From an uncultured Lachnospiraceae bacterium (GTDB lineage Bacteria; Bacillota; Clostridia; Lachnospirales; Lachnospiraceae): DNA of 20,963 nt. Of this stretch, positions 5,060 through 20,201 are shown in pieces; within the stretch, counting starts at the first letter, position 1, and every line of letters begins with the position of its first letter. The notes under the pieces were generated by a model. The model saw only the letters and a list, made by a program, of their open reading frames with translations, did no database searches and was not told where the DNA came from. Where the stretch lies: contig CANQGL010000041.1 in NCBI GenBank assembly GCA_947623185.1, forward strand, positions 1 to 20,963. Direction: 5' to 3'. A program made the translations under genes and the position numbers.

Positions 5060-5086
5060 AAATGATCCCTTTCGGGAAAAACCTCC

Positions 5087-6073
5087 TTACAGCAATTCCT
5101 TCCGGAGCTGCTCTCCGCTTTTGGCGGAAAGATATGCAGGCGGAATGTCGAGAATCGTCTTGCAGCCGCTTACGCCCTCCTGTTTCATGCGGTATGCGGC
5201 GCGTGCACACGCCACGATGACCGAGGTGGTGAACTCCGGATTGGAGTCGAGCTTTAAGCTGTACTCGATCACATGATTATGTTCCAGGTTCCAGCCGGTC
5301 TTTCCGTTCCGGATCACAAACCCGCCGTGCGGAAGCCCCGCGTGATCGCGTTTCAGCTCTTCCTCGGTGATGAAGTGCACCGTGGTATCGTATTCGTCAA
5401 AATAGTTCGGCATGGTAACGATCTCATGCTCGATCCTTGCTTTGTCTGCGCCTTCTTCGGCCACCACAAAGCACTCTCTCGTATGTTTCTCGCGCGTCGT
5501 GAGCTTCGGCGTCTTTCCGGCGCGGATCTGCTCGAGCGCGCTGTCGACCGGGATCGTATACTGTCTTGCGTCTTTGACCCCTTTGATGCGGCGGATCGCG
5601 TCGGAGTGTCCCTGGCTCACGCCCTTGCCCCAGAACGTGTAATCGGTCCCGTTCGGAAGAACGGCGTTCGCATACGCGCGGTTTAGGGAGAACATGCCCG
5701 GATCCCAGCCTGCCGAGATCACGGCGATCTTTCCGGCCTCCTTCGCCGCCTTATCGACGTTCGCGAAGTGCTCCGGGATCTTTGCGTGCGTGTCAAAGCT
5801 GTCGACCACGTTGAAGTATTTCGCGTATTCCGGCGTCTGCACCGGCAGATCGGTCGCGCTGCCGCCGCAGAGGATCAGAACGTCGATCCGATCCGTCATA
5901 TTTTTCGCCTCATCGGCCCGGTACACCGGAACTCCTTCGGTTAGGATCTTCACGCTCTTCGGGTCGCGTCTCGTGAACACCGCGGCGAGCTCCATATCCG
6001 GATTCTGTTTGACGGCGCACTCCACGCCGCGTCCCAGGTTTCCGTATCCCATGATTCCAATCCTGATCGTCAT
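5087..6073 (-). CDS. ddh: meso-Diaminopimelate D-dehydrogenase
   Basis: MTIRIGIMGYGNLGRGVE...GSATD...AGWDPGMFSLNR...FWGKGVSQGHSDAIRRI...HTRECFVV...GLPHGGFVI...LKLDSNPEFT aligns by eye along its whole length with Corynebacterium-type Ddh. The start at 6073 is preceded by AGGAGAG. The longer track ORF (to 6211) would run through the promoter and is rejected. Confidence 0.93.
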   Translation of the reverse strand: MTIRIGIMGYGNLGRGVECAVKQNPDMELAAVFTRRDPKSVKILTEGVPVYRADEAKNMTDRIDVLILCGGSATDLPVQTPEYAKYFNVVDSFDTHAKIPEHFANVDKAAKEAGKIAVISAGWDPGMFSLNRAYANAVLPNGTDYTFWGKGVSQGHSDAIRRIKGVKDARQYTIPVDSALEQIRAGKTPKLTTREKHTRECFVVAEEGADKARIEHEIVTMPNYFDEYDTTVHFITEEELKRDHAGLPHGGFVIRNGKTGWNLEHNHVIEYSLKLDSNPEFTTSVIVACARAAYRMKQEGVSGCKTILDIPPAYLSAKSGEQLRKELL

Positions 6074-6182
6074 TTCCCCATCTCTCCTGTCTTTATTTCC
6101 GCGGTCGATGATCCGGCTGCCCTTTTCCCGCGCGGATCCCCGGCAGACGCCGCGGAATGTCTGATCTGCCGTAAGCAGGTAT

Positions 6183-6211
6183 ATTCTATCAGCAGGACTT
6201 TCCGATGTCAA
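6183..6211 (-). promoter_or_regulatory. Strong sigma-70-type promoter upstream of ddh
   Basis: Read on the minus strand: TTGACA (6211-6206), a 17-nt spacer, then TAGAAT (6188-6183) with a TG at the extended -10 position (TGATAGAAT). It predicts a leader of about 105-110 nt before ddh. Confidence 0.6.
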
Positions 6212-6319
6212 CCATAATTTTTCTTATCCTGCTCCGGGGGATTTTCGCGCCTGTTCCCGGCCGATTTTACCGGTCTTTATGCGGTTTCCGATCCCTCCGG
6301 TCTCAACTCCCGGCGCGCC

Positions 6320-7489
6320 TTAGTTCAGATACTTCGCCAGTTCATAGACACGCTCCCTTGTCATCTCGGCCGCGCGTGTGTTTATAGCCAGGGACTGCAT
6401 GGTCCCACCGTCTTCCCCGGCCTTCTTCGCACTCTGTTCCTTTTCCGTGATCCATGCGCGCTCCTCGGCCGTGAGCGCCTCCATGGTCTCCGGATCGAGC
6501 TTCTCCTTTAACATTGCCCAGACCGTATTCAGGGTATTATCCCATTCGGTATAGATCTGCATGGAGATCTCGTTCATATCGGCCTGCGTATGCGCGGCCT
6601 GCAGTTGGCCTTCCAGCACGCCGGTGTATTCCTCTGTCGCGGCGATCTCTTCCGCCGCCTGCTCCGGCATACTCAGCGACGAATAATCGCTGCTGGAGAA
6701 TCCCTCCTGCTCAGTCACGTTGTAGAGTCCGTAAAACGGCAGTTTTGTCTCCGCCGCCGTATCCAGATTGTAGTATCCGACCCATCCGCGATACTCCTCC
6801 GGCAGGTCGGCAAGCTCGGAACCGGGCAGATAGAAAAGCAGTTCCTCCGCTCCGTCGAGGCCGTACGCCGTGGCGTAATAATAATGGACTCCGTCTATGA
6901 TCTCATCCCCGTCGCCGAGGGGATATTCGATGGATTCGATCGTCGTCCGATAGGTCAGATCGTCGATTTTTTCAAGCTCCGCGAATTTCCCGGAGAATTC
7001 GCTGTAATAAACGGTCCCGTCCGGGTAGCCTTCCCCGACGTCACCCATGTCGCTGTCCTGGAAATATCCGCTGAACGTCCCGTCCTCGTTGATATAGAGG
7101 GAGGTGTGCCAGGCGCCCGCGCCGCTGCTGAAATAAAACTCCCAGTTTTTAAGATCCGCGTAGGTGAACCCTGCGCCGTCGGGAAGTTCGGCTTCATCCG
7201 GCTGCGCATCGCCTTCCGCCTCCGGGGACGCTCCCGGCTCCTGTCCGGCCGCGGATCCCGGTTGCGCCGCGTTTTCAGGCTGTTCCGCGCTTTCCGGCTC
7301 TGCCGCGGGGCCTGCCGGTTCGATCGTTATCGTACCGGATCTCCCGGCGGTATCTTCCTGTTCCGTTCCCGCTGTGGCAGGTCCCGCCGTCTCGCCGCCG
7401 CTCTTTTTTCCGCATCCGGCCAGCAGAGACGCCGCGATCAGGATCATAACCGCTCCGGCACAGATCCGTTCCAAAGTTCTCTTTTTCAT
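6320..7489 (-). CDS. Lipoprotein with a low-complexity Pro/Glu/Ala linker and a C-terminal DUF1311 (LprI-like) domain
   Basis: It has a signal peptide plus lipobox (MKKRTLERICAGAVMILIAASLLAGC). The acidic PAAEPESAEQPENAAQPGSAAGQEPGASPEAEGD linker follows. The C-terminus (LNTVWAMLKEKLDPETMEALTAEERAWITEKE...RERVYELAKYL) resembles DUF1311. The start at 7489 follows GAAGGAGG. Confidence 0.75.
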   Translation of the reverse strand: MKKRTLERICAGAVMILIAASLLAGCGKKSGGETAGPATAGTEQEDTAGRSGTITIEPAGPAAEPESAEQPENAAQPGSAAGQEPGASPEAEGDAQPDEAELPDGAGFTYADLKNWEFYFSSGAGAWHTSLYINEDGTFSGYFQDSDMGDVGEGYPDGTVYYSEFSGKFAELEKIDDLTYRTTIESIEYPLGDGDEIIDGVHYYYATAYGLDGAEELLFYLPGSELADLPEEYRGWVGYYNLDTAAETKLPFYGLYNVTEQEGFSSSDYSSLSMPEQAAEEIAATEEYTGVLEGQLQAAHTQADMNEISMQIYTEWDNTLNTVWAMLKEKLDPETMEALTAEERAWITEKEQSAKKAGEDGGTMQSLAINTRAAEMTRERVYELAKYLN

Positions 7490-7575
7490 AGCGCTGCCTC
7501 CTTCTATCATTCAAACCGTCGTATCTTCGTTCCGCTTTCCGGGCACCTCACTGCCCGCGGGTTTCCTCCGGTCAT

Positions 7576-8466
7576 TTAACTCTCCGACGGTTCTTTTTCG
7601 TTCATTCCGCTATCCAGGCGGTCCGCCAGTTCCGCAAACTGTTCGAGCGTCAGCGCTTCCCCGCGCACCGCCGCCGGCAGTCCCATCTCCGCAAGCGCCC
7701 CGGCGACCTGCTCTTTCGTAAGGGAAAGGTCCGCCGCGTTGCAAAGGCTGTTCTGCAGCGTCTTTCTCCGCTGGTTGAAGGACGCGCGGATCAGGCTAAA
7801 CATGTACTCCGCATTTCGCACGCTGACGGGCGGCGTCTCGTGTCTTTTCAGGCGGATCACCGCCGATCCCACGTTCGGCCGCGGGATAAAACAGTTCGGC
7901 GGTACGTTCGCCACGATCTCCGGTTTCGCGTAATACTGCACGGCCAGTGACAGCGCCCCGTAGTCCTTTGTGCCGGGGCCAGCCTGCATCCGCCCTGCGA
8001 CCTCCTTCTGCACCATGACCGTCACGCTGCCGACCGGCGCGCCGCTCTCAAACAGGCTCATGATGATCGGCGTCGTAATGTAATACGGCAGGTTCGCCAC
8101 GACCTTCAGCGGCCTCCCTCCATTATGATCCGCCGCCAGTTGATTTATGTCAACCTTAAGGATGTCGTCGTTGATGATCGTTATGTTGTCGTACTCCGCC
8201 AACGTTTCCTGCAGGATGGGGATCAGCCCGCGGTCGATCTCCACCGCGATCACATGCCCGGCCGCTTCGGCCAGATACTGCGTCATCGTTCCGATCCCCG
8301 GCCCGATCTCCAGCACGCAGTCGTCTTTTGTCAGCTCCGCGGCGGCCGTGATCTTTTCGAGCACATGCGTATCGATCAGGAAATTCTGGCCGAATTTCTT
8401 GCGGAACGAAAAATTGTATTTCTGTATGATCTCAATGGTATTCCTTGGATTTCCCAGGTTCGCCAT
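7576..8466 (-). CDS. rsmA: 16S rRNA (adenine1518/1519-N6)-dimethyltransferase
   Basis: KKFGQNFLIDTHVLEKI...VLEIGPGIGTMTQYL...VANLPYYITTPI are classic KsgA/RsmA motifs. The start MANLGN at 8466 is preceded by AGGAGG. Confidence 0.93.
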   Translation of the reverse strand: MANLGNPRNTIEIIQKYNFSFRKKFGQNFLIDTHVLEKITAAAELTKDDCVLEIGPGIGTMTQYLAEAAGHVIAVEIDRGLIPILQETLAEYDNITIINDDILKVDINQLAADHNGGRPLKVVANLPYYITTPIIMSLFESGAPVGSVTVMVQKEVAGRMQAGPGTKDYGALSLAVQYYAKPEIVANVPPNCFIPRPNVGSAVIRLKRHETPPVSVRNAEYMFSLIRASFNQRRKTLQNSLCNAADLSLTKEQVAGALAEMGLPAAVRGEALTLEQFAELADRLDSGMNEKEPSES

Positions 8467-8584
8467 CCGTACCTCCTGTCTGCATGATCCATCAATGCGG
8501 GCCGCCTGCACGAATCGTCTGCGCGCGCCGCCTTTTAAGGCTTTTGCCCGGGGCCGCTTTCACCAGCTCTATTGCAATCCGGTT

Positions 8585-9406
8585 CTATTGCAGCCGCTCA
8601 TCCAGCCGGTATAATCTTCTCGCATTCTCCGCCGTCGCCCGGATGATCTCCTCTTCCGTCATCCCTTTCAGCTGCGCCATCACCGCGACGACCGCCGGAA
8701 GATACAGCGACGAATTCCGCTTTCCGCGGTTCGGGACCGGCGTCAGGTACGGACTGTCCGTCTCCAGAACGAGCCGGTCGAGCGGAGCGTACTCCACCAC
8801 CTCGAGCAGCTTTTTGGCGTTTTTGTAGGTCAGAACGCCGCCGATCCCCAGATAGTAGCCCATATCCAGATACTCTCTGGCGATCTCGACGCCGTAGGAA
8901 AAACAGTGGATCACGCCGCCGGTCTCCCCCGCGTGTTCCGCCTTCATAATGTCAAGCGTGTCTTTCGCCGCCTCGCGGCTGTGAATGATCACCGGATAGC
9001 CGGTCTCCTTCGCGAGCGCGAGCTGGCGCACGAACCACTTTTTCTGGATCCCGCGTTCCGGCTCGTCCCAATAATAGTCGAGGCCGATCTCTCCGAGCGC
9101 GACGGTTTTCTCTTCGTTCAGCAGTTCGCGGACGCGGGAAAGCGGATCGACCGCCGCGGCACGGTTCCCATCCTCGTTTTCCAGAGTTTCAAGCTCCGCG
9201 GTCTCCGTCGGATGGACGCCGACCGCCGCGTAAATGAACGGGTACGCTTTGGCCAGAGCGACCGTCGTTTCGCAGGATGACAGGCTGGCCGCCACATTGA
9301 CGACCGTTCCGACGCCGTTTTCCGCAAAGCTCGCAAGAAGCGCATCCCGGTCGTCGTCGAACGTCTCGTCGTCGTAATGCGCGTGCGTGTCAAAAATCAG
9401 TTCCAT
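8585..9406 (-). CDS. tatD: TatD family metal-dependent hydrolase/deoxyribonuclease
   Basis: FDTHAHYDD...AVGVHP...GEIGLDYY...IHSREA...HCFSY...ETDSPYLTP is the TatD/YabD signature set. It sits in the conserved metG-tatD-rsmA arrangement of Firmicutes. Confidence 0.9.
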   Translation of the reverse strand: MELIFDTHAHYDDETFDDDRDALLASFAENGVGTVVNVAASLSSCETTVALAKAYPFIYAAVGVHPTETAELETLENEDGNRAAAVDPLSRVRELLNEEKTVALGEIGLDYYWDEPERGIQKKWFVRQLALAKETGYPVIIHSREAAKDTLDIMKAEHAGETGGVIHCFSYGVEIAREYLDMGYYLGIGGVLTYKNAKKLLEVVEYAPLDRLVLETDSPYLTPVPNRGKRNSSLYLPAVVAVMAQLKGMTEEEIIRATAENARRLYRLDERLQ

Positions 9407-9579
9407 GTTCTTTCTCCATGCTATTTGAGTTTACATAAGTCTAAGTTCGCTGAACCCGGGGCAAAGTGCCCGCGATGCCGACTGCCCGGCCGCCGCGCGC
9501 AGAGTGTACAACAGCCACACGTCCCTGCGGACGCATGGCTGTATTGATCGTTTTCCGTCGGAGCCGTTTCCGGCCGGGA

Positions 9580-11580
9580 TCAGCAGACCTCGGAGCCGGA
9601 CTTGATGTCCTTTTCCGGGCTCATTAACGCCAGATTCCCCTCGTCGTCCTCCGCGCAGAGCAACATTCCCTCGGACATCATGCCCGCCAGTTTCGCGGGC
9701 TTTAAGTTGACCGCGACCATGACCTTGCGGCCGACCATATCCTCGGGTTTGTACCATTTCTTGATGCCGCTTAGGATCTGTCTGGTCTCGCTGCCGATCT
9801 TCACCTGCGAGCAGAGCAGCTTCTTCGACTTCGGCACTTCCTCACACTTTACGATCTCGCCGATGCGGAATTCCAGCTTTGCGAAATCGTCGTACTCGAT
9901 CTCCGGCTTGTGTTCCGGAACGATCTCACCAGGCGCACTCTCGGCGGGCGCTTCGCCGTCGGCCGCACCGTCAGTATTTCCGGCCGCTTTCTCCTCCGCC
10001 GCGTGCATCGCCTCGACCTTTGCAAGCACTTCCTTGATGTCCATGCGCGCAAAGAGGATCTCCGGTTTTTCCGTTACCTTATTGCCGTCCGGATAGAGCC
10101 CGAAACGATCCATGTCGGAGAGGGCGCGCTTTTCGGTATTTAACTGCGCCAGGATCTTTTCGGAGGTCTCCGGCATGAACGAGTACAGCAGGGACGCGCC
10201 GATCGTGATCGCCTCGGTCAGGTTGTAGAGCACCGTCGCCAGACGGTCCTTCTTCGCCTCATCCTTGGCCAGCGTCCACGGCATCGTCTCGTCGATATAT
10301 TTGTTGCTGCGGCGGAAGATCCCGAAGATCTCGGTGATCGCGTCCGCGACGCGCAGCTTGTCCATCTTTTCGTCGGCCTTCTTTACGGCCTCAAGAACCG
10401 TATTCTTCAGGTCCTCGTCGAACTCCCCGCTTACGCCCTTATTCTCCACAACGCCGCCGAAATACTTGTTCGTCATCGACACGGTGCGGTTGACAAGGTT
10501 TCCGAGAATGTTCGCCAGATCGGAGTTCATGCGCTCGACCATCAGCTCCCACGAGATCACGCCGTCGTTGTCGAACGGCATCTCATGCAGCACGAAATAG
10601 CGGACCGCGTCCACGCCGAAGAAATCCACCAGCGTGTCGGCGTAGAGCACGTTGCCCCTGGATTTGCTCATCTTGCCATCGCCCTGAAGGAGCCACGGGT
10701 GTCCGAATACCTGTTTCGGAAGCGGCACGCCGAGGGCCATCAGAAAGATCGGCCAGTAGATCGTATGGAAACGGATGATGTCCTTTCCGATCAGATGGAG
10801 GTCCGCGGGCCAGTATTTCTTATACCGCTCCCCGTGGTTGCCGTCGCAGTCGTAGCCGATGCCGGTAATGTAGTTGGTGAGCGCGTCGAGCCAGACGTAG
10901 GTGACGTGCTTCGGGTCGAAGTCGACCGGGATTCCCCACTTGAACGACGTTCTCGAAACGCAGAGGTCCTGAAGGCCCGGAAGCAGGAAATTGTTCATCA
11001 TCTCGTTCTTGCGCGATACGGGTTGGATGAATTCCGGATGCGTGTTTATATGGTCGATCAAACGCTGCGCATATTTACTCATACGGAAGAAATACGCTTC
11101 TTCCTTCGCAGGCTGGAGCGGCCTTCCGCAGTCGGGACATTTTCCGTCAACCACCTGGGACGGAGTCCAGAACGACTCGCACGGCGTGCAGTAAAGGCCC
11201 TCGTACTCGCCCTTGTAGATGTCTCCCTGCTCGTAGAGCTTGCGGAAGATCTTCTGCACCTGTTTCTCGTGGTCTTCGTCCGTGGTGCGGATAAACTTGT
11301 CGTAGGAGGTGTTCATCAGATCCCAGATCCGTTTGATCTCCCCGGCGACGTTGTCGACGAATTCCTTCGGCGTGATCCCGGCCTCCTGCGCCTTTAACTC
11401 GATCTTCTGGCCGTGCTCGTCCGTTCCGGTCTGGAAGAAGACGTCATAGCCCTGTTCTCTTTTATTGCGCGCGATCGCGTCCGCAAGAACGATCTCGTAG
11501 GTGTTGCCGATATGCGGCTTGCCCGAGGTGTATGCGATCGCGGTCGTTATATAATACGGCTGACTGCACTTTTTGCACAT
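9580..11580 (-). CDS. metG: Methionine--tRNA ligase with a C-terminal tRNA-binding (Trbp111/EMAP-like) domain
   Basis: It has a HIGH-type motif (GKPHIGNTYE), a KMSKS motif (DGKMSKSRGN), a Zn knuckle (CTPCESF...CPDCGRP) and a C-terminal FAKLEFRIGEIVKCEEVPKSKKLL...VNLKPAKLAGMMSEGML OB-fold. The RBS is AGGAGG. Confidence 0.96.
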   Translation of the reverse strand: MCKKCSQPYYITTAIAYTSGKPHIGNTYEIVLADAIARNKREQGYDVFFQTGTDEHGQKIELKAQEAGITPKEFVDNVAGEIKRIWDLMNTSYDKFIRTTDEDHEKQVQKIFRKLYEQGDIYKGEYEGLYCTPCESFWTPSQVVDGKCPDCGRPLQPAKEEAYFFRMSKYAQRLIDHINTHPEFIQPVSRKNEMMNNFLLPGLQDLCVSRTSFKWGIPVDFDPKHVTYVWLDALTNYITGIGYDCDGNHGERYKKYWPADLHLIGKDIIRFHTIYWPIFLMALGVPLPKQVFGHPWLLQGDGKMSKSRGNVLYADTLVDFFGVDAVRYFVLHEMPFDNDGVISWELMVERMNSDLANILGNLVNRTVSMTNKYFGGVVENKGVSGEFDEDLKNTVLEAVKKADEKMDKLRVADAITEIFGIFRRSNKYIDETMPWTLAKDEAKKDRLATVLYNLTEAITIGASLLYSFMPETSEKILAQLNTEKRALSDMDRFGLYPDGNKVTEKPEILFARMDIKEVLAKVEAMHAAEEKAAGNTDGAADGEAPAESAPGEIVPEHKPEIEYDDFAKLEFRIGEIVKCEEVPKSKKLLCSQVKIGSETRQILSGIKKWYKPEDMVGRKVMVAVNLKPAKLAGMMSEGMLLCAEDDEGNLALMSPEKDIKSGSEVC

Positions 11581-11654: not shown

Positions 11655-12995
11655 TTAACCCGGCTCCCTGCGGCGGAACGCGCCGCCGATCCCCATCTCG
11701 GTCCGGTATTTTGCGACCGTCCTGCGGGACACCGAGACCCCGTCTTCCCCCAACAGGCGGGTGATCTGCTCGTCGCTGTAGGGCCGGGTCTTGTCCTCCC
11801 CGTCCACGATGGCCTTGAGCCTGGTCTTGACCGTGTTCCGGCTCACGTCCCCGTTTTCTCCGCTGTTCTTTCCCGAACTGATCCCCGACGTGAACAGATC
11901 GCGCATCAGGATGCATCCGGATGGAAACAGCAGGTATTTGTCGCGCACGGCGCGGCTCACCGTCGATTTATGGATCTCCCGCTCCTCGGCGATCTCCTCG
12001 AGCGTCATCGGCTTTAACGGCTCGCGGCCGAGGAAAAAGCCCTCCTGGCGTTTCACGATGCTCACCGTGATCCCCTCGAGCGTCTGCCGTCTCTGCTCGA
12101 CGGCGCCTGTAATAAAGCGGGCGCGTTTCAGCTTTTCCTCAAAATACGTTTTCAGCGTCTCGTCGTGCGCCGTCTCCATCATATGGACGTAAAACTCGTT
12201 GATCCCGAGCGCTCCCGCCCATTTGTCGTTCAGGCTAACGATCCACTGTCCGTCCTGGCGCTGAACAAGAATATCCGGCACGATATACTGGGTCCGGTCG
12301 CCGCCGAATCCGTTTAACGGCCGCGGGTTCAGCTCCTTAATAATATGGATCAGTTTGCGCACGTCGATGGATGAGAGCTTCATGTCGCGGGAAATGCTGC
12401 TGATCCTTCCGTCCGCCACATCCTGCAGGTGGTTTCGGATCATCCGTTCCAGCAGCTCGCCGTTGTCGGCGTCCCGGATCTGGAGGATCAGGCATTCCTC
12501 GAGCCCCGACGCGAAGATCCCCTTCGGTTCGAGCTTTTTCAGCTCCGCGAGGACGCGCATGACCTGCGCCGGTTTTCTCCCGAGTGTTTCCGCGATCTCA
12601 TCCGGCGACATCGTGAGGTATCCGTTCTGATCCAGCGAGTGGATACAGAATTCCACGATCTCGCGCTCGTTCTCTCCCATCCTCTTTCCGGGGATCTGAT
12701 TCATGATCAGCTCCTCGACCGACTGCCCGTCGTTCTCGACCTGATAGATCTCGCCGTTTCCCTCGTCGATCGGCGAAACCTTTCCGTAAAAACGGTCATA
12801 CTCTCTGTAAACAACGGGGGCGCTTTCCTCATGCATCCCTGACGAATATTCGACAAGTGGATTCTCGATCTCCTCGTTCTGCAGAAATTCGTGCAGTTCC
12901 GAGGCCGACATACTGAGAATTTTCAGTGATTCCATCTGAACCTGCGACAAGATCTGTTTCGTCTGAACAGAAATTCCCGGTTTGATATCCAACAT
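11655..12995 (-). CDS. rpoN: RNA polymerase sigma-54 factor
   Basis: Region I is Gln/Leu-rich (QTKQILSQVQMESLKILSMSASELHEFLQNEEIENPLVE). A core-binding region follows, then a C-terminal HTH and RpoN box (SVSRRTVAKYRTEMGI). The 446-aa length is typical. Confidence 0.93.
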   Translation of the reverse strand: MLDIKPGISVQTKQILSQVQMESLKILSMSASELHEFLQNEEIENPLVEYSSGMHEESAPVVYREYDRFYGKVSPIDEGNGEIYQVENDGQSVEELIMNQIPGKRMGENEREIVEFCIHSLDQNGYLTMSPDEIAETLGRKPAQVMRVLAELKKLEPKGIFASGLEECLILQIRDADNGELLERMIRNHLQDVADGRISSISRDMKLSSIDVRKLIHIIKELNPRPLNGFGGDRTQYIVPDILVQRQDGQWIVSLNDKWAGALGINEFYVHMMETAHDETLKTYFEEKLKRARFITGAVEQRRQTLEGITVSIVKRQEGFFLGREPLKPMTLEEIAEEREIHKSTVSRAVRDKYLLFPSGCILMRDLFTSGISSGKNSGENGDVSRNTVKTRLKAIVDGEDKTRPYSDEQITRLLGEDGVSVSRRTVAKYRTEMGIGGAFRRREPG

Positions 12996-13016
12996 GATTT
13001 ACCGCCTTTCCCGTCC

Positions 13017-13046
13017 AGTATAGCACAATTCCCCCTTTTTCTGCAA
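13017..13046 (-). promoter_or_regulatory. Candidate sigma-70 promoter for rpoN (extended -10)
   Basis: Read on the minus strand: TTGCAG (13046-13041), an 18-nt spacer, then TGCTATACT (-10 TATACT at 13022-17 with an upstream TG). It lies about 20 nt upstream of the rpoN RBS. Confidence 0.45.
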
Positions 13047-13089
13047 CAGAAAAGAAAACCGCCTTAAGACCCTGCGGTCCCAAGGCGGT
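13045..13089 (-). terminator. Intrinsic terminator ending the eight-gene operon, upstream of rpoN
   Basis: The minus-strand transcript reads ACCGCCUU-gg-GACC-gcag-GGUC-uu-AAGGCGGU, an 8-bp outer plus 4-bp inner stem at 13058-13089. It is followed by UUUCUUUUCUGUU. It lies 20 nt after the crotonase stop. Confidence 0.65.
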
Positions 13090-13108: not shown

Positions 13109-13888
13109 TTATTTCCCCGTGTATTCGCGGTGCGGGCGCTTTTCAAGGAACGCCGTCGTCGCTTCGAGATGGTCCGCCGTCCCGAAGCAGTCCGCGAACA
13201 GCCCCGTCTCGTTCTCAAGGCTCTCGGAAAGCCCGGCCTCCATCGCGGCGTTGATCGACTTCTTCATGCAGCTCACGCCGAACGGAGCCATATCGGTGAT
13301 GATGTCGGCCAGCTCCATCGCCTTCTCCATCAGCTTCTCCGGTTCCACCACATATTCCACGAGCCCGAGCCGCAACGCTTCCTCCGCGTCGACGCTTCTG
13401 CCGGTATACAGAAGCTCCTTCGCGCGCGACGCGCCGACCGTTCTCGGCAGGAGCACGGTGCAGCCCCATCCGGGGATCCCGCCCAGCTTGATCGTCGGAA
13501 CGCCGATCTTCGCGTCGGTCGCCGCCACCGTGATATCGCTCGCAAGAATGATCTCCATTCCGCCGCCGAGCGCATAGCCGCGGACGGCGCTGATGACCGG
13601 TACCCTGTGGTTCAGGATGGAAAGGATGCACTTCTTTCCGCGGCCGGAGAACGCGCGGGCCGTCTCGGGATTCAGTTTCACTTCCTCCTTGATGTCTCCG
13701 CCTGCGGTGAACGCTCTCTCGCCCGCCGCCGTGATGATCACGCAGCGCACGTCGTGATCGTTCTCCGCCGTCTCCAGCGCTTCCGTCAGCTCATCTAACA
13801 TCTGGGAATTGAACGCGTTGAGCGCTCTCGGGCGGTTGATCGTGATGACCGCGGTGCGGTTTTTCTTTTCGTAAAGCATGAATTCCAT
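13109..13888 (-). CDS. Enoyl-CoA hydratase/isomerase (crotonase) family protein
   Basis: AVITINRPRALNAF...VIITAAGERAFTAGGDIKE...AVRGYALGGGMEIILASD has the oxyanion-hole motifs of crotonases. The preferred start is the third Met (MEFMLYEKK), 6 nt after AGGAGA. The track start is 13894. Confidence 0.9.
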   Translation of the reverse strand: MEFMLYEKKNRTAVITINRPRALNAFNSQMLDELTEALETAENDHDVRCVIITAAGERAFTAGGDIKEEVKLNPETARAFSGRGKKCILSILNHRVPVISAVRGYALGGGMEIILASDITVAATDAKIGVPTIKLGGIPGWGCTVLLPRTVGASRAKELLYTGRSVDAEEALRLGLVEYVVEPEKLMEKAMELADIITDMAPFGVSCMKKSINAAMEAGLSESLENETGLFADCFGTADHLEATTAFLEKRPHREYTGK

Positions 13889-13938
13889 AATCATTCTCCT
13901 CTTTTCATAATTGTATTATCCACGGCGCGGATACGCCG

Positions 13939-15414
13939 TTACTGATCATCCGGCAGATCTTTGTAGATCGTCTTTCCCGCTTCGTTCTTCGGGATCTTTT
14001 CGATCGGGAGGACCCGGATCCCCCGCGGGTGGATCCCTGTCTTTTCGGACAGCCACGCCGCCGCCCGCTCGCAGAAGTCTTCGTCGGCCCCGGCCGCGTA
14101 GATCCTCATGGCGTCGTCCTTTCCGGTACAGGCCACGTCGATCTCCCCGAAACCGGCCTTGAGCATCTGCTCGATCTCATCCATGTTGACGCGCTTTCCG
14201 AACATCTTCAGGAACCGCTTTTTGCGGCCGGTAATATAATAGAAGCCTTCCGCGTCGCGTTTCGCCATGTCGCCGGTGAAAAGGATTCCTCCGCGTTCGT
14301 CGCCCTTTGAAAGATCCGCGCGGCAGGCCGCGTAGCCCATCGTGACGTTTTCTCCCTCGTAGACCAGCTCGCCGACCGTATCGGCCTCCAGGATCTCCGT
14401 CTTTTCGTCCTCCATCAGGCGGAACCGTCCGCCCGGGATCGCGATCCCCATGCTGCCGCATTTTCTGAGCGCGTCCTTTGCGGGCAGATAGCCCATGCGG
14501 GCGGTCGCCTCGGTCTGGCCGTACATGACGATAAACCGCCGTCCGGTCGCCTGCGCGTATTCCGCGAATTTCTTATGGAGCGCCGGGGACAGCTTTCCGC
14601 CCGCCTGCGTCATGGTGCGCAGCGAAGGCAGATCCATGCCGAAAAACGACAACCGGTTCAGCATCTCGTAGGTATACGGCACGCCCGCGATCGATGTGGC
14701 TCCTTCCTTCCGGAAGAAGTCCCAGAACTCCCGCTCGAACAGTGTATGTTTCGTCAGGAGGACCGTCGCACCGGCCAGTATGTGGCTGTTGATGACCGAC
14801 AGCCCATAGGTATAGTTCATCGGGAGCGTGGTGATCGGCCGCTCCGTCTCGTCAAGTTCAAGATATTCCGCGATCGCCGCCGCGTTTGACTGGATATTCC
14901 GCCTGCTCTGGCGGACCAGTTTCGGGCTGCCGGTGCTGCCGGAGGTCGTAAGCAGAAGCGCCAGCTCGCTGTTTAAGCCGTCTGCAGCGGCATCGTGTGC
15001 CGCCTCCGAGCGAAAGATCCGATAGCCGAACCGCTCCGTCTCTTCCGATGCGACGGGCGCGGCTTCCTCCGCCGGGCCATGCTCCCCCTCGCCGCCTCTC
15101 CCGCACATCCGCTCCTCCATATCCGCGGGGAACGCGAGGTATTCGGGCCGGTAGGTCCCGATCAGACCGGCCAGCAAATGTCTGTCCAGGTTCCGCTCCA
15201 GAAGTAACGGCACCACGTTTCTCCGCAAGCAGGTCAGATACAGGGCGACCGCTCCGATGCTGTTCTCACAGAGCAGGAACATTAACGTCCCGGGCCGCAA
15301 AAGCCCGGAGACCGATTCGTAAAACCGTTCAAATTCGCCGTAGGTGAGCCGTCCTCCGCCGTCTTCGACTAACATCGTCCGGCTGCTTTTCGACGGGTCC
15401 GTATCGTAAAACAC
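13939..15414 (-). CDS. ANL-superfamily adenylate-forming enzyme (acyl-CoA/acyl-carrier-protein ligase-like)
   Basis: Core motifs are LLLTTSGSTGSPK (A3), MYGQTE (A5), FTGD (A7), GRKKRFLKMFGKRV (A8) and PKNEAGK (A10). The GTG start at 15414 lies 7 nt after AAAGGAGG. An acidic/Gly-rich insertion (about residues 100-150) precedes A3. Confidence 0.88.
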   Translation of the reverse strand: MFYDTDPSKSSRTMLVEDGGGRLTYGEFERFYESVSGLLRPGTLMFLLCENSIGAVALYLTCLRRNVVPLLLERNLDRHLLAGLIGTYRPEYLAFPADMEERMCGRGGEGEHGPAEEAAPVASEETERFGYRIFRSEAAHDAAADGLNSELALLLTTSGSTGSPKLVRQSRRNIQSNAAAIAEYLELDETERPITTLPMNYTYGLSVINSHILAGATVLLTKHTLFEREFWDFFRKEGATSIAGVPYTYEMLNRLSFFGMDLPSLRTMTQAGGKLSPALHKKFAEYAQATGRRFIVMYGQTEATARMGYLPAKDALRKCGSMGIAIPGGRFRLMEDEKTEILEADTVGELVYEGENVTMGYAACRADLSKGDERGGILFTGDMAKRDAEGFYYITGRKKRFLKMFGKRVNMDEIEQMLKAGFGEIDVACTGKDDAMRIYAAGADEDFCERAAAWLSEKTGIHPRGIRVLPIEKIPKNEAGKTIYKDLPDDQ

Positions 15415-15429
15415 AGGATCCCCTCCTTT

Positions 15430-16638
15430 TCATGTCAAGGTCCGTGAAAGTTCTGCGATCATATCTTTTCCATCCCAGACCGGATCCATCCGGAGCGCCT
15501 GTCCCACAGGCACGACGCGGTGAACGCCTTTCAGCCTGTGGCGCAGGACCAGCTCCCGAAGGTCGGCTTCCCGAATGCCGAAGCAGGTGACGGACTGCGT
15601 CTTTTCCGACACCGCCTCCGTCCATTCGTCGCCGTTTTGCATGTGATATTCCAAAAAGCTTCCGAACTGCATCCGGTTTTCAGAAGCGATTTTTGGGACA
15701 TCGCTGCATTCCAGCACATACAGGCGGTTGCTCAGGCGCCTGATGCGCCGGAGGTTCGCACCGAACCCCATGCACTCCCAGAGTGCACCGTATTTTTGAC
15801 TGACTTTTATCTCTGAAAGCGCATAGCGCTTCGATGCCTCAAAAACGGCGTTCCAGAACCGATCCGCGGCCTCCTGTCCGGTCCGCTCATCCGGCTCCCG
15901 CCAGAATACCGCTTTCGGACAGGAGCAGGCATTCTGGTCCATCGCGTAGGTATCGTTGTAGAACCGGACCGCGAGCAAGCCGAGTTCTTCTTCGGAAAGC
16001 GCCAGGACCGCTTCGGCGTCAAGCACCGCCAGCGAATTGCGGTCCGGGAACACCAGCTCGACGGCGGACGGTTTCAGCGGTACGGCCCGTATCCTTGAAA
16101 CGGTCTCGTCGCCGCCCCAGATGATCCGCGCGTCGCATTCCGCGCTGAAACGTTCCGTCAGGTCCGTCCTCCCGCTGTCGTAGGAGATGATCGAGACCCG
16201 GTTTTGCATCCCGGCGAACCGCTCCTCGTTAAGCAGGCCGCCCAGCAGGCCGCAGAGAAGTTCCCCTTCCCGGGTCCGGACGCGCTCCGAGACCCTCACG
16301 CGGCAGGTATTTCCCGCCAGAAGACCGATCGCGCAGGTATAGACGAACATCAGCGGGACGTTCGCGGGCGCGATGTGGAAGCTCTGCCCAAGTCCGATAT
16401 TGCCCGGCCGGTCGTATTTTTCCTTCAGTTCCATCAGGTGCGCGCGCCGAAGCCAGAAGCCCAGCGCCCGGACTTCCTCGCCGGCCTCGTTCCGCGGCAG
16501 TCTGCGGATCGATTCCGCAAGCGCCGAGAGCAGGTCGAGCACGGGTTCGGAAAAGGTGATCTCCGGCCTGTCATCCGTTTCAAACGCTCCCGCAAGAAGC
16601 GTGATCCCTTCCGGGATCCGGTCGCATTCAGCCTTCAT
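15430..16638 (-). CDS. LuxC-like acyl-CoA (acyl-thioester) reductase family protein
   Basis: At 402 aa, FHIAPANVPLMFVYTCAIGLLAGN...RVS and the putative catalytic-Cys segment YAMDQNACSCPKAVFW resemble the LuxC/aldehyde-dehydrogenase-like reductase family. The start overlaps the preceding gene by 11 nt. The assignment is by eye and needs an HMM check. Confidence 0.72.
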   Translation of the reverse strand: MKAECDRIPEGITLLAGAFETDDRPEITFSEPVLDLLSALAESIRRLPRNEAGEEVRALGFWLRRAHLMELKEKYDRPGNIGLGQSFHIAPANVPLMFVYTCAIGLLAGNTCRVRVSERVRTREGELLCGLLGGLLNEERFAGMQNRVSIISYDSGRTDLTERFSAECDARIIWGGDETVSRIRAVPLKPSAVELVFPDRNSLAVLDAEAVLALSEEELGLLAVRFYNDTYAMDQNACSCPKAVFWREPDERTGQEAADRFWNAVFEASKRYALSEIKVSQKYGALWECMGFGANLRRIRRLSNRLYVLECSDVPKIASENRMQFGSFLEYHMQNGDEWTEAVSEKTQSVTCFGIREADLRELVLRHRLKGVHRVVPVGQALRMDPVWDGKDMIAELSRTLT

Positions 16639-17701
16639 AGGTATCGCTGCACCCCCTGATCTCCGCTTTCGGTATCCGGCCCGTTATCGCGAAATATTTT
16701 CCCTTCCGTCCGCAGGGGCAGTCGTCCTCCCCGAGGATCATCCCCTTGTCCTCCGTCAGGATCGAATGGCCGGGATACGACCACGCCATCGGTGTGATGA
16801 CCTGGATCACGCCCTCTTTCCCCGTCTCGCAGACGGAGAAGTCCTCCATATCCCGGATCAGGATCTCCGAATAGTCGCTGACGTGCAGATGTCCGCATTC
16901 ACATTCCATATAGATGCATCCGGTCTGCTCCGCCATGCCGTAATAGTTCCTCACATCACGGATCCCGCAGACCTCAAAAAGCCCGTCCCTGAAATCTTCG
17001 GCGGAGACCGCTTCGTTCTGCAGCTTCTTCCAGCCGCCGCCGTGGATCAGAAAGCCGTTCTCCAGAGGCAGCCGGAGGCCGGATTCCTTAAGGGGCCTGT
17101 AAAAATACTTCCATATCATATAAGTAAAGCCGAACACGAGGACCGGTCCGCCGGCCGCCTTCTCAAGGAACGACCGGACCGCCTCCGTATCCAGCTCCAT
17201 ATTCTCATTTAAGGCATACTGTCGTTTTGCCCCGAAGATCGAAAAGCCGAGTATACCGGCGCCCCGCGCGGAAAACAGGTTCCTGTCGTGCAGGACGTTC
17301 GGAGAATCGACGATCAGCATCGGGATCCGCTTTTCGCCGATGTAGCTGCTGACGATCCGCTGTAAAGTCCTCTGCTGCCATTCCGCCGTCTTCCGGTCCA
17401 GAAAGATCCTTGACGGCTGCTGCCCGGTCGTCCCGGAGGATGTCATGGTCTTGAACACTTCCTCCGCGGGCACGCTGCAGAGCTCCGCCTTCTTAAACAA
17501 AGAGACCGGCACCATCGGGACCGTTTCCGGGCTGCGCCGCATCCCGCGCCTGTCTCCCAGTAGCTCGCAGCAGCGGTCATACGGAGCGCAGCATTCCCTG
17601 TGCCGGTCAGTCAGATCGCTCAGAAGTTCGCTGTAAACCTCCCGTTTCTCCGCCGAGCCGAGTTCATATGGGCCGCGCTGTAAAAGTTCGTCATAAGTCA
17701 T
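16628..17701 (-). CDS. LuxE-like acyl-protein synthetase (adenylating, PaaK/LuxE family)
   Basis: At 357 aa, FKTMTSSGTTGQQPSRIFLD (the P-loop-like ANL motif as found in LuxE), HGGGWKKL, YYGMAEQ and the C-terminal GRIPKAEIRGCSD are characteristic of the LuxE family. There are 11-nt overlaps with both neighbours. Confidence 0.78.
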   Translation of the reverse strand: MTYDELLQRGPYELGSAEKREVYSELLSDLTDRHRECCAPYDRCCELLGDRRGMRRSPETVPMVPVSLFKKAELCSVPAEEVFKTMTSSGTTGQQPSRIFLDRKTAEWQQRTLQRIVSSYIGEKRIPMLIVDSPNVLHDRNLFSARGAGILGFSIFGAKRQYALNENMELDTEAVRSFLEKAAGGPVLVFGFTYMIWKYFYRPLKESGLRLPLENGFLIHGGGWKKLQNEAVSAEDFRDGLFEVCGIRDVRNYYGMAEQTGCIYMECECGHLHVSDYSEILIRDMEDFSVCETGKEGVIQVITPMAWSYPGHSILTEDKGMILGEDDCPCGRKGKYFAITGRIPKAEIRGCSDTYEG

Positions 17702-18377
17702 GGCGGATCCTCACTTCCTCATCCATCCGATACGGCTCTCCGTGTCCCGGCAGGATCCACATCCCGTCCGGGATCGTGCGAAGCCACGGTTTCGCGTACC
17801 GCTCGTACTCCTCCTCGCTCCCTCCGGGCAGCCGGGTCAAAACCCTGTCGCCGGGAAGCAGATAGTCGCCGACAAACAGCAGATCGCCGAAGCGGATCAC
17901 GCTGCTGCCGTGCGTATGTCCGGGCAGCGAGACAAATTCCAGCAGGCCGTCCGCAAACGGGACCGCCATGCTGTCTCCGAACTGCAGATCCGGCGGATCG
18001 CAGGTAAACGGTCTGTAATGGACAAAAGTCTTTTCACCGCTCTTATAATAAAGAAACGTTTCCATCAGACGCGACATGTTCTCCTTGGCGCTCTGCATCC
18101 CGCGGGCGCACGCGCTGCTTCCGATCACGACCGTGCGGTACCGCTCCCGCAGAGCGTTGAGCCCGCCGATATGGTCGCAGTGCTCGTGCGTCAGAAGGAC
18201 CACGTCCGGAGTCATGTTGCGTTTTTGCAACGCCTCTTCCAGCAGTTCAAAATTATTGGGATCAATCACCGCCAGACGGCCTTCCCGCACCAGCAAATAG
18301 CAGTTGCTGTCCGTCACCGGGTCCACGATCCTCGCCGGAAAAAGTCCGTTTTCCATGTCCTCAGATCTCGACGCCAT
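17691..18377 (-). CDS. Metallo-beta-lactamase-fold hydrolase (glyoxalase II-like; possible thioesterase)
   Basis: NCYLLVREGRLAVIDP...VLLTHEHCDHIGGL (HxHxDH) plus downstream His/Asp ligands (LPGHTHGS, VGDYL, LPGHG). The start is ambiguous. The ATG at 18377 overlaps the ACP gene by 17 nt. The alternative ATG at 18356 lies 4 nt after the ACP stop. Confidence 0.85.
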   Translation of the reverse strand: MASRSEDMENGLFPARIVDPVTDSNCYLLVREGRLAVIDPNNFELLEEALQKRNMTPDVVLLTHEHCDHIGGLNALRERYRTVVIGSSACARGMQSAKENMSRLMETFLYYKSGEKTFVHYRPFTCDPPDLQFGDSMAVPFADGLLEFVSLPGHTHGSSVIRFGDLLFVGDYLLPGDRVLTRLPGGSEEEYERYAKPWLRTIPDGMWILPGHGEPYRMDEEVRIRHDL

Positions 18378-18630: not shown

Positions 18631-19437
18631 TTATTCCCAGTATCCGGCCGCCTCGGGAAGCTCCGCGGTCTCCTGCGGATTCTCGACCGTAAACAGTTCC
18701 TTCGGCATCAGCTGCCGGCATTTGGCGGCCGATACGACCTCTCCGTTCTGATTGACGCAGATCCCGTAAAACGTCCCGACATACTGGTCCTTCCCCTCGC
18801 GGCAGGCCGAAAGCATGATCTTAGCCGTGACCATATCGCCGTAAAACACCGGTTTCAGGAAACGGATCTGTTCCTCGATCAGAACGGTCCCCTCTCCGGG
18901 CAGCTTCGTTCCCATCGCGGTCGAGATCAGGCTCGCCGCCAGCACCCCGTGGACCACGGGGCGTCCGTAAACTGACCGCTTCGCAAATTCCGCATCCGTA
19001 TGCAGGCGGCTCGTGTCTCCGGTCAGCGCGGCAAAGCGGTCCACGTCGTCCTTAAAGAACGTCTTCGTGTATTCCGCGGTATCGCCCACGCGGAGCGTCC
19101 GTTTCTCCGGTCCGTTTTCCGTCGCCGCACCGTCCTGTTGCAGATCTGAAACAGAGCTCTCCGCAGCTTCTTTTTCGCGCTCCTCACGCAGATAGGTATG
19201 CACCTGCACGAAGCTGCGCTCGGTCGGCAGCACGAAAATGCGCTTGGTCGCGATCAGACCCTCCGTCGACGCGCAGGCGCGCATACAGCCGCAAGCCACG
19301 ATCCAGACGTCGCAGGTATTCCCCTCCGCCGCCGTGCGGTAAGTATGTTCCGGAAACTTTTCCTTGAGCAAATTGACCTGCCGGCCGCGGTTATATACGG
19401 AATTGCACCCGCCGCAATATTTCACACCGATTATCAT
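18631..19437 (-). CDS. Fusion protein: N-terminal six-cysteine domain plus C-terminal MaoC-like (R)-specific enoyl-thioester hydratase (hot-dog fold)
   Basis: The N-terminal 60 aa carry Cys at residues 8, 11, 42, 49, 51 and 55 (YCGGCN...TCDVWIVACGCMRAC). An acidic linker follows. The MaoC core is LRVGDTAEY...FAALTGDTSRLHTDAEFAKRSVYGRPVVHGVLAASLIS...LPGEGTVLIEEQIRFLKPVFYGDMV. The RBS AGGAGA lies 5 nt before the ATG. Confidence 0.85.
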   Translation of the reverse strand: MIIGVKYCGGCNSVYNRGRQVNLLKEKFPEHTYRTAAEGNTCDVWIVACGCMRACASTEGLIATKRIFVLPTERSFVQVHTYLREEREKEAAESSVSDLQQDGAATENGPEKRTLRVGDTAEYTKTFFKDDVDRFAALTGDTSRLHTDAEFAKRSVYGRPVVHGVLAASLISTAMGTKLPGEGTVLIEEQIRFLKPVFYGDMVTAKIMLSACREGKDQYVGTFYGICVNQNGEVVSAAKCRQLMPKELFTVENPQETAELPEAAGYWE

Positions 19438-19446
19438 ACGGATCTC

Positions 19447-19740
19447 CTATACCTGATGGCTCAAAAGCTTTTTCGCAAAATCAAGGATCTCCGGGTCCAT
19501 TTCATTGACAAGCACCACGTCCTTGATTTCAGGGATCTCATCCATTAAGGGCTTTCCGATCAGCTCTTCCGTCGTTACCAGCGCGGAGGGACATCCCGCG
19601 CAGTGCCCGGTAAGCCGGATCTTGAGGGCCCCGTCCTCAAACGAGAGGATCTCGACATCCCCCTCGTGTTCCATCAGGGATGGACGCACCTTTTCTTCCA
19701 TGACCGTTTTGATCCTCTGCAGCAGTTCTTCGTTCATCAT
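19447..19740 (-). CDS. Nfu/NifU C-terminal-domain Fe-S cluster carrier protein
   Basis: LLQRIKTVMEEKVRPSLMEHEGDVEILSFEDGALKIRLTGHCAGCPSALVTTEELI has the CxxC Nfu signature. The track ORF begins at a TTG (19767). The ATG-ATG pair at 19740/19737, following AAAGGAG, is preferred. Confidence 0.85.
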   Translation of the reverse strand: MMNEELLQRIKTVMEEKVRPSLMEHEGDVEILSFEDGALKIRLTGHCAGCPSALVTTEELIGKPLMDEIPEIKDVVLVNEMDPEILDFAKKLLSHQV

Positions 19741-19789
19741 CCCGCTCCTTTCTGTCATTACGGACAATCATCCTCTACCATATTATAAA

Positions 19790-19804
19790 GCAATTTCCGT
19801 GCCA
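19790..19804 (-). promoter_or_regulatory. Sigma-54 (-24/-12) promoter driving the eight-gene minus-strand operon
   Basis: The minus strand reads TTTGGCACGGAAATTGCTTT, i.e. TGGCAC-N5-TTGC with the exact consensus spacing. It lies about 50 nt upstream of the Nfu start codon. Confidence 0.78.
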
Positions 19805-19928
19805 AAGGAAGCAGAACTGAAACAAACTTTTCCTTTTTCGCCCGGCTTACCGCATTTATGCCGTTTTTACGCGGTCTTTTCCGGAAACGAACCGATTTCG
19901 AAACACGTCGGTCCGGGGAAATCCGTGC

Positions 19929-19969
19929 CGTTTTTGCAACAAAATGTCTTTTGTTTCGTTTTTGCAACA
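19929..19969. promoter_or_regulatory. Direct repeat CGTTTTTGCAACA x2 (candidate enhancer/UAS for a sigma-54 activator)
   Basis: Identical 13-mers sit at 19929-19941 and 19957-19969 (28-bp period), flanking a 7-bp inverted repeat AACAAAA-tgtc-TTTTGTT (19939-19956). Degenerate copies are CCGTTTTTACGC (19861-) and CCGTTTTACAA (19981-). They lie about 140-205 bp from each sigma-54 promoter. Confidence 0.4.
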
Positions 19970-20132
19970 TATTTTGGGCTCCGTTTTACAATTTTTATAC
20001 CTGAAACCTTTGTTCAAAAAAAATATAAAAAAATTAATGTTTCCTGAAAATGCCCGATTTCCTTACAATTTTCGAGTCTGGCTTTTCAAAAATTTTATCC
20101 TTTCGTTAAAAAGTTTCCAGTTTTTTTATTTT

Positions 20133-20147
20133 TGGCACGCAAATTGC
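20133..20147 (+). promoter_or_regulatory. Sigma-54 (-24/-12) promoter driving abfD
   Basis: The plus strand reads TTTGGCACGCAAATTGCTAT, i.e. TGGCAC-N5-TTGC. The -12 element ends 55 nt before the abfD ATG. The RBS AAAGGAAG lies at about 20186-20193. Confidence 0.8.
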
Positions 20148-20201
20148 TATTAATAAATGATAGCAGTAAAAATATCTTTAAAAGAAAGGAAGTACAAAAC
20201 T

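Follow-up and report, generated by a model that had tools for sequence, protein, structure and literature searches.

A predicted bidirectional sigma-54 control region between abfD and a carrier-protein operon in a Lachnospiraceae bacterium

The Locus

A stretch of 20,963 bp from an uncultured Lachnospiraceae bacterium (contig CANQGL010000041.1 of assembly GCA_947623185.1), analyzed at its full length and called the window below, carries two gene units that diverge from a common spacer. On the plus strand lies abfD, the gene for 4-hydroxybutyryl-CoA dehydratase/vinylacetyl-CoA isomerase, and on the minus strand lies a unit of eight genes headed by nfu, which encodes a NifU-like Fe-S carrier, and including a small acyl-carrier-like protein gene, with the sigma-54 gene rpoN behind it (Table 1). 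The spacer contains two sigma-54 (-24/-12) promoters that face the two units, and between them a pair of palindrome-like sites resembling those assigned to XanR, the regulator of a sigma-54 regulon predicted in Clostridium (Nie, Dong and Yang, 2019, BMC Genomics 20:565, PMC6615313). The spacer is probably a bidirectional sigma-54 control region, in which a single enhancer-binding protein (EBP) of the XanR type on the central palindromes would co-induce both units.

Table 1. Features of the window (CoA, coenzyme A; MBL, metallo-beta-lactamase; UAS, upstream activating sequence; ACP, acyl carrier protein)
Feature	Position	Strand	Remarks
rpoN (sigma-54)	11655-12995	minus	TIGR02395 372 bits (cut-off 277); activator-interacting, core-binding and DNA-binding Pfam domains all present
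Intrinsic-terminator-like hairpin	13058-13089	minus	14 pairs (8 G-C) and T-run; closes the nfu-led unit
Enoyl-CoA hydratase (crotonase)	13109-13894	minus	final gene of the nfu-led unit
AMP-binding ligase	13939-15414	minus	'caiC' in PMC6615313
LuxC-like acyl-CoA/acyl-protein reductase	15430-16638	minus	101 bits
LuxE-like acyl-protein synthetase	16628-17701	minus	177 bits
MBL-fold hydrolase	17691-18377	minus	
Third XanR-like palindrome, GTTGCGTTTTTGCAAC	18216-18231		inside the MBL hydrolase gene; 11/12 specified positions
Acyl-carrier-like protein, 78 aa	18361-18597	minus	serine motif LWDSIGHMDL; weak ACP/DltC matches
MaoC-like dehydratase	18631-19437	minus	N-terminal Cys-rich AF_0334 domain
nfu (NifU-like Fe-S carrier)	19447-19740	minus	heads the minus-strand unit
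Common control region	19741-20201		461 bp, between the nfu and abfD start codons
Sigma-54 promoter facing the nfu-led operon, TTTGGCACGGAAATTGCT	19807-19790	minus	exact match
UAS-1 (candidate), GTGCCGTTTTTGCAAC	19925-19940		9/12 specified positions of GTTGCA-N4-TGCAAC
UAS-2 (candidate), GTTTCGTTTTTGCAAC	19953-19968		10/12 specified positions of GTTGCA-N4-TGCAAC
Sigma-54 promoter facing abfD, TTTGGCACGCAAATTGCT	20131-20148	plus	exact match
abfD, first 254 codons	20202-20963	plus	Pfam HpaB_N 326 bits; cut by the window edge

The Two Sigma-54 Promoters

The two 18-mers lie where an earlier reading of the same DNA (the original prediction) had placed them, on opposite strands and with a single difference, at position 10. 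That reading had found no further TGGCAC-N5-TTGC sequence by eye, and the count is exactly two, on the minus strand at 19790-19804 and on the plus strand at 20133-20147, versus 0.03 matches expected from dinucleotide-preserving shuffles of the 20,963-bp window; none of 100 shuffles attained two. With up to two mismatches allowed, 13 matches occur versus 15.3 expected, and because the 11 beyond the pair thus stand at chance level, the window holds no other credible sigma-54 site. Beyond the core, both promoters extend to TTGGCACG-N4-TTGCT, with the GG and GC elements at exact consensus spacing, and they are oriented outward, away from each other. Transcription would be expected to start near 19778 on the minus strand and near 20159 on the plus strand.

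The length of the control region, given originally as 434 bp, is corrected here to 461 bp. The shorter figure arose because a TTG start codon at 19767 had been assumed, which is only 22 nt past the TTGC element and conflicts with the leader of about 50 nt proposed in the same prediction. A GGAG ribosome-binding site stands ahead of an ATG-ATG at 19740/19737, and the 96-aa form of Nfu was the one chosen by gene callers on four contigs of the same species. The end of the TTGC element is 49 nt from the nfu ATG (19740) and 54 nt from the abfD ATG (20202), which bears out the predicted 50-55 nt, and 329 bp separate the two -24 elements (19804 to 20133), in line with the prediction of about 340 bp. 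A lysine- and arginine-rich open reading frame (ORF) of 70 aa on the minus strand (19758-19970), present in public gene calls on same-species contigs (L082, L083), overlies the nfu promoter and both palindromes; it was rejected as a spurious coding rival because it has no homologue in any related locus outside the same species and the region is rich in indels. No known RNA element was found in the window with Rfam.

Related loci were gathered by scanning genomes with a MaoC-like protein alignment, which gave 80 loci from distinct species. In 1.36 Mb of these loci, sites of the strict pattern TTGGCA[CT]-N5-TTGC[TA] number 48 versus 0.45 expected, about 100-fold above chance, and 43 of the 48 lie no more than 330 nt upstream of abfD, nfu, the MaoC gene or the carrier gene, in the same orientation. 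This excess and the gene-facing placement support the original assignment of the sites as sigma-54 promoters. Divergent neighbors abfD and nfu were found in 27 loci, and their spacer is at most 700 bp long in 22 genome loci; among these short divergent spacers, 19 of 22 carry the nfu-facing site and 21 of 22 the abfD-facing site. About 20 species-level loci, ranging from Lachnospiraceae to Megasphaera, have the divergent promoter pair with central palindromes, and the taxa that carry the divergent pair include Lachnospiraceae metagenome-assembled genomes (MAGs), Otoolea muris, C. symbiosum, C. transplantifaecale, Anaerostipes, and several Megasphaera. An alignment of the spacers of eight species has a mean column identity of 38% and many indels; what stays invariant in it are both -24/-12 elements, both palindromes, and the abfD ribosome-binding site.

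A pair of near-identical inverted 18-mers might also reflect chance or the remnants of an inverted duplication, such as the terminal inverted repeats of a mobile element, with sigma-70 transcription starting from the A/T-rich spacer. The two promoter arms can be extended to 34 nt at 76% complementarity, and a few weak sigma-70-like hexamer pairs are present in the spacer. This explanation is nevertheless extremely improbable given the number of matches expected by chance. Orthologous positions in other families carry the pair as well, yet in other species the two promoters have unlike N5 spacers and flanks, so that the similarity of the 18-mers is attributable to the sigma-54 consensus and not to duplication. 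The mobile-element reading of the 34-nt arms was rejected on this conservation; neither a transposase nor a target duplication is present, and the DNA enclosed by the arms is regulatory and conserved. The sigma-70-like hexamer pairs reach a score of 9 of 12 and lack conservation.

In the closest genome relative (L002, positions 3824-9691), the control region is duplicated and a third sigma-54-driven unit with its own palindrome pair and promoter is located between abfD and nfu. This extra unit encodes a 493-aa protein, a FeoA-domain protein, two small proteins, and an Fe-type alcohol dehydrogenase, which may be a 4-hydroxybutyrate dehydrogenase; the 493-aa protein and the two small proteins gave no Pfam match.

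Palindromes Between the Promoters

The candidate activator sites UAS-1 and UAS-2 are 16-bp, palindrome-like sequences that follow each other at 28 bp in the middle of the spacer and correspond to two copies of an exact 13-nt direct repeat, CGTTTTTGCAACA, extended to 16-mers. UAS-1 aligns with an invariant block in the eight-spacer alignment. From the midpoint of the pair it is 143.5 bp to the -24 element of the nfu promoter and 187.5 bp to that of the abfD promoter, in keeping with the expectation that activator sites of sigma-54 promoters lie about 80-250 bp upstream.

Counted at no fewer than 10 of the 12 specified positions, the palindrome occurs 30 times in the 11.1 kb of the 22 short spacers (2.7 per kb) versus 0.10 per kb outside the spacers in the same loci, a 27-fold enrichment, and shuffled spacers give 0.27 matches in total. 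In most spacers the palindromes are paired at 28-34 bp, and the pairs lie between the promoters; eight related genome loci have the 28-bp spacing, and most Megasphaera have one of 33-34 bp. The median distance to the -24 elements is 179 bp on the abfD side and 121 bp on the nfu side. The palindrome is present in 23 of 30 abfD loci with an EBP gene versus 5 of 28 without one (Fisher p = 8e-6). Four of the five palindrome-bearing loci in the latter group are of the sigma-54 type, and their retrieved sequence stops where close relatives carry the EBP gene. The suggestion in the original prediction that one activator could serve both promoters is therefore supported by a conserved palindrome pair between the promoters that tracks the presence of an EBP.

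Both promoters could be genuine and the enhancer nonetheless partitioned, with UAS-1 serving nfu only and UAS-2 serving abfD only, or looping could favor one side, and the two units would then be regulated unequally or separately. The arms do differ, the nfu arm (143.5 bp) having 40-49% GC and the abfD arm (187.5 bp) 25-32% GC and long A/T tracts that might make looping easier; one of the two control-region copies in L002 combines a palindrome pair with only one promoter, and the Clostridium operons have their own sites each (PMC6615313). Partitioning is unlikely, however, as the palindromes always form a tight pair at 28-34 bp, which is typical of one oligomer on two sites, and are never split toward the promoters, and the only activator seen in the loci is of the same EBP type. 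Similarly, the palindromes could be bound by another regulator, for example a repressor, with the EBP binding elsewhere or being dispensable for one unit, and palindrome-like copies do occur within coding sequence as well (18216-18231). This is considered very unlikely: the motif equals the one assigned to XanR (PMC6615313), it co-occurs with the EBP gene and is nearly absent from abfD clusters that have no EBP, the palindromes lie 65-255 bp upstream of the -24 elements at the distance expected of an enhancer, and no other DNA-binding regulator gene is consistently linked to the loci.

The third palindrome, which lies within the coding sequence of the MBL hydrolase, has the same sequence as a C. 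beijerinckii XanR site (Table S3 in PMC6615313) and has a 12-mer, CGTTTTTGCAAC, in common with both spacer palindromes. It falls in a poorly conserved stretch of the hydrolase and is kept in the nearest clade (L002, L005, L012) though the encoded residues vary; it is lost in L007 and beyond. It was considered as a candidate internal enhancer, but no sigma-54 site was found downstream of it, and it is only a possible member of the system. Relatives likewise have in-gene palindromes of a similar type, within their MaoC and LuxE genes.

The Activator and Sigma-54

The machinery required by sigma-54 promoters exists in this species, as the original prediction would demand: rpoN lies in the window, and an EBP gene with a GAFTGA motif follows the abfD-abfT-membrane protein unit beyond its right edge. 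A same-species contig (L082) matches the window at 99.2% identity along 2.66 kb and carries the full abfD followed by an abfT-type CoA-transferase gene, and a second contig from the samples of the same study (L088) overlaps L082 at 99.0% over 314 nt. On L088, the order is abfT, the gene for a 453-aa membrane protein, a hairpin terminator, a sigma-70-like promoter, and the gene for a 472-aa EBP with PAS, AAA+ and helix-turn-helix (HTH) regions, the GAFTGA motif and the HTH signature common to these EBPs; no sigma-54 or UAS site was found ahead of this EBP gene. In virtual window coordinates the EBP is located at about 24.7-26.1 kb, about 3.7 kb past the right edge. The contigs beyond that edge were reached through the carrier protein and an EBP homologue; an exact 35-mer from the right end of the window had no match among metagenome contigs, and the MaoC-like protein, looked up as an exact match, led only to a contig of 2.4 kb.

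Among the related loci, ORFs with both GAFTGA and Walker-A motifs were found in 32, and an EBP is present in 30. The EBPs tested contain PAS, Sigma54_activat and HTH_8 domains, and with one exception the cluster-linked EBPs share 50% or more identity along their full length and have the C-terminal signature GNVRxAAxxLGxxxSTFVRKRKxY; the exception, in L038, is a different EBP. The gene is not always in the same place: the closest relatives have it after the abfD-abfT-membrane protein unit, Megasphaera has it after rpoN, L040 and L075 have it between the two units, and Clostridium-type loci have it between the two co-directional operons. At full length, the EBP of the window species is 51-55% identical to those of L056, L057, L069, L070, L076, and L077, and its best NCBIfam match is PrdR at 409 bits, so far under the model cut-off of 795 that it is not taken to be a PrdR. 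In L077, a Clostridium MAG, the sigma-54 and UAS sites are identical to the published C. kluyveri entries CKL_3020 and CKL_3027, which ties this EBP clade to XanR.

The rpoN gene of the window follows the terminator of the nfu-led unit and has its own sigma-70-like promoter, TTGCAG-17-TGnTATACT (the stretches concerned are 11655-12995 and 13016-13089). It is found within 10 kb of the cluster in 11 of 25 sigma-54-controlled loci versus 0 of 17 loci that are not under sigma-54 control; the loci concerned in this observation are L013, L015, L017, L018, L020, L028, L032, L034, L035, L065, L004, and L006. In six Megasphaera loci (tblastn coordinates), rpoN begins 26-80 bp after the AMP-ligase gene and the EBP gene comes next, with no terminator detected between the operon and rpoN in the one locus scanned (L015). 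Because rpoN there directly follows the target operon, sigma-54 would come from its own sigma-54-dependent promoter, and the arrangement, if true, would be an autocatalytic sigma-54 switch. The cluster-linked RpoN proteins have diverged strongly from one another and are 31-65% identical to that of the window, versus 74-92% for AbfD across the divergent loci. It is possible, though doubtful, that in many lineages rpoN, the EBP gene and both target units travel together as a self-contained cassette in which sigma-54 serves mainly or only this pathway.

Genes of the Two Units

The full-length AbfD of the same species scores 820 bits against PDB 1U8V, the 4-hydroxybutyryl-CoA dehydratase of Clostridium aminobutyricum. 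AbfD is a [4Fe-4S] flavoenzyme, and co-expression of Nfu with it is a plausible reason for the link between the units. The 453-aa multi-pass membrane protein encoded after abfT, which gave no Pfam or NCBIfam match, may be a transporter of the pathway substrate; it was found at L088 1117-2478 (about 23.1-24.5 kb from the window start) and at L003 2158-3519, with 83% identity between L088 and L003.

Within the nfu-led unit, the N-terminus of the MaoC-like protein (about 60 residues; PF27236 AF_0334) has invariant C8, C11, C51, and C55 and a CGGCN motif, and this Cys-rich domain may bind a metal or an Fe-S cluster, possibly in connection with the adjacent nfu. In some lineages (L039-L051), the match to the MaoC query is limited to the C-terminal MaoC part. 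The counterpart of the 78-aa carrier-like protein is called 'acp' elsewhere (PMC6615313). Downstream of rpoN are the housekeeping genes metG, tatD, and rsmA, and the window also contains hsdM, for a type I restriction-modification methylase (599-2128), with a small Cro/C1-type HTH gene at 2184-2435 ahead of it, both unrelated to the promoter pair.

The functional link between abfD and the carrier-protein operon that the original prediction drew is supported by synteny. The genes for AbfD, the carrier, LuxE, LuxC, and the ligase occur together in 42 loci, and the association persists in Lacrimispora and Hungatella, where sigma-54 sites and the EBP are lacking; because the synteny persists where sigma-54 control does not, the link is independent of the mode of regulation. 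In loci of the Lacrimispora/Hungatella type (L019, L021-L025, L027, L029, L031, L033, L037, L053, L054, L064), abfD is about 6 kb or less from the carrier/LuxE/LuxC/ligase operon and nfu is on the opposite strand, and no EBP and no sigma-54 site ahead of either unit was found. A match to TGGCATGAAGATTGC recurs in these loci at a fixed position, antisense in luxE, and is probably a coding constraint.

Proposed Mechanism

Under the proposed bidirectional control, sigma-54 RNA polymerase would be poised in closed complexes on both outward -24/-12 promoters. The abfD-facing promoter would drive abfD, abfT and the membrane protein gene, and the nfu-facing promoter would drive nfu and the genes for the MaoC-like dehydratase, carrier, MBL hydrolase, LuxE, LuxC, AMP-ligase, and crotonase, ending at the terminator (13089-13058). 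A single PAS/AAA+/HTH EBP of the XanR type, expressed from its gene after the abfD unit, behind a terminator and sigma-70-like promoter of its own, would bind UAS-1 and UAS-2 and be triggered by a metabolite sensed through its PAS domain. It would then loop the DNA to either side, and ATP hydrolysis would open both promoters, so that the abfD unit and the carrier-protein operon would be induced together. As a single hexamer cannot touch both promoters at once, induction together means in response to the same signal and not necessarily with equal or simultaneous output.

Several points weigh against this reading, among them the impossibility of simultaneous contact just mentioned. The window itself encodes no EBP gene, and the placement of the EBP depends on successive short contigs, drawn from different samples within one study and joined at 99% identity. 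The presumed orthology of the EBP of this species to Cbei_2099 and CKL_3021 is indirect, by way of L077. The palindromes of the window are degenerate in one half-site (9 and 10 of 12 positions), versus 12 of 12 in several relatives. The XanR promoters lie outside the six fragments that Nie et al. used in their electrophoretic mobility shift assay (PMC6615313), and neither experimental work on XanR nor any account of a pathway combining abfD with LuxE/LuxC was found in the literature.

Implications

The abfD gene marks the route from 4-hydroxybutyrate, succinate, or gamma-aminobutyric acid to butyrate in gut anaerobes. If the mechanism is true, the ligand of the PAS domain would give a handle on when gut Lachnospiraceae and Megasphaera use this butyrate route, and the Clostridium-only XanR prediction would extend to gut Lachnospiraceae and Negativicutes. 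For the uncharacterized carrier-protein/LuxE/LuxC/AMP-ligase operon, the linkage to abfD is a strong guilt-by-association clue to function because the units stay together in the 42 loci even where regulation differs. The spacer would also represent a compact natural bidirectional sigma-54 switch, although what is known of the sigma-54 mechanism is left unchanged by this locus.

Comparison With Known Systems

Divergent sigma-54 promoters that share one spacer have precedents in enterobacteria, where the hycA.../hypA... pair is controlled by FhlA from sites between hyc and hyp. In the other such pair, zraP/zraSR, two divergent sigma-54 promoters in one intergenic region are under the single EBP ZraR (PMC4987338). 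The window resembles this type in having two outward sigma-54 promoters in one spacer, with candidate activator sites between them. ZraR, a response regulator, and FhlA, which senses formate, are however unrelated to the EBP of the window species and differ from it in motifs, targets and phylum, and the two systems have been proven by experiment. PAS-containing one-component EBPs near their own fermentation or amino-acid operons, as in the window species, are also represented by CrbR, XcgR and AhcR (butyrate genes) and by PrdR (proline reductase), but these groups mostly have TGT-N10-12-ACA motifs, and the XanR motif is listed as distinct from them. Sigma-54 control of COG2368, the family of 4-hydroxybutyryl-CoA dehydratase, has been noted in Clostridia elsewhere as well (PMC12316311).

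The closest likeness is to the XanR regulon of Clostridium, itself a computational prediction like the one made here. The XanR-group EBPs include Cbei_2099, CKL_3021, and CTK_RS03630, and their target operons, 'abfD-nifU-hyp-ach-golB' and 'acp-caiC-luxEC', were described in Clostridium only (PMC6615313). Table S3 of that study lists XanR sites such as GTTGCGTTTTTGCAAC, GATGCATAATTGCAAC, and GTTGCAATTATGCAAT, of the form GTTGCA-N4-TGCAAC at -123 to -287 from the start codon, and sigma-54 sites such as TTGGCACGCTTATTGCTTT at -55 to -73 (PMC6615313). Both systems have abfD, nifU or nfu, a CoA-transferase gene ('ach') and acp-caiC-luxE-luxC as targets, a promoter of the form TTGGCA(C/T)-N5-TTGCT at 50-75 nt before the start codon, and a PAS-AAA+-HTH EBP with the same HTH signature, and the 12-mer of the window palindromes is found in a C. 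beijerinckii site. The layout differs: in Clostridium the operons are co-directional, each with its own UAS, and nifU follows abfD, whereas in the window the units diverge from one common palindrome pair, nfu heads the carrier operon, and genes for the MaoC-like protein, MBL hydrolase and crotonase are added. In addition, the EBP gene follows the abfD unit, rpoN is adjacent, and the host is Lachnospiraceae-like. Judged on its sequence, the locus is a predicted XanR regulon that adds both a taxon and a layout to those already described, the regulon itself having been predicted in 2019.

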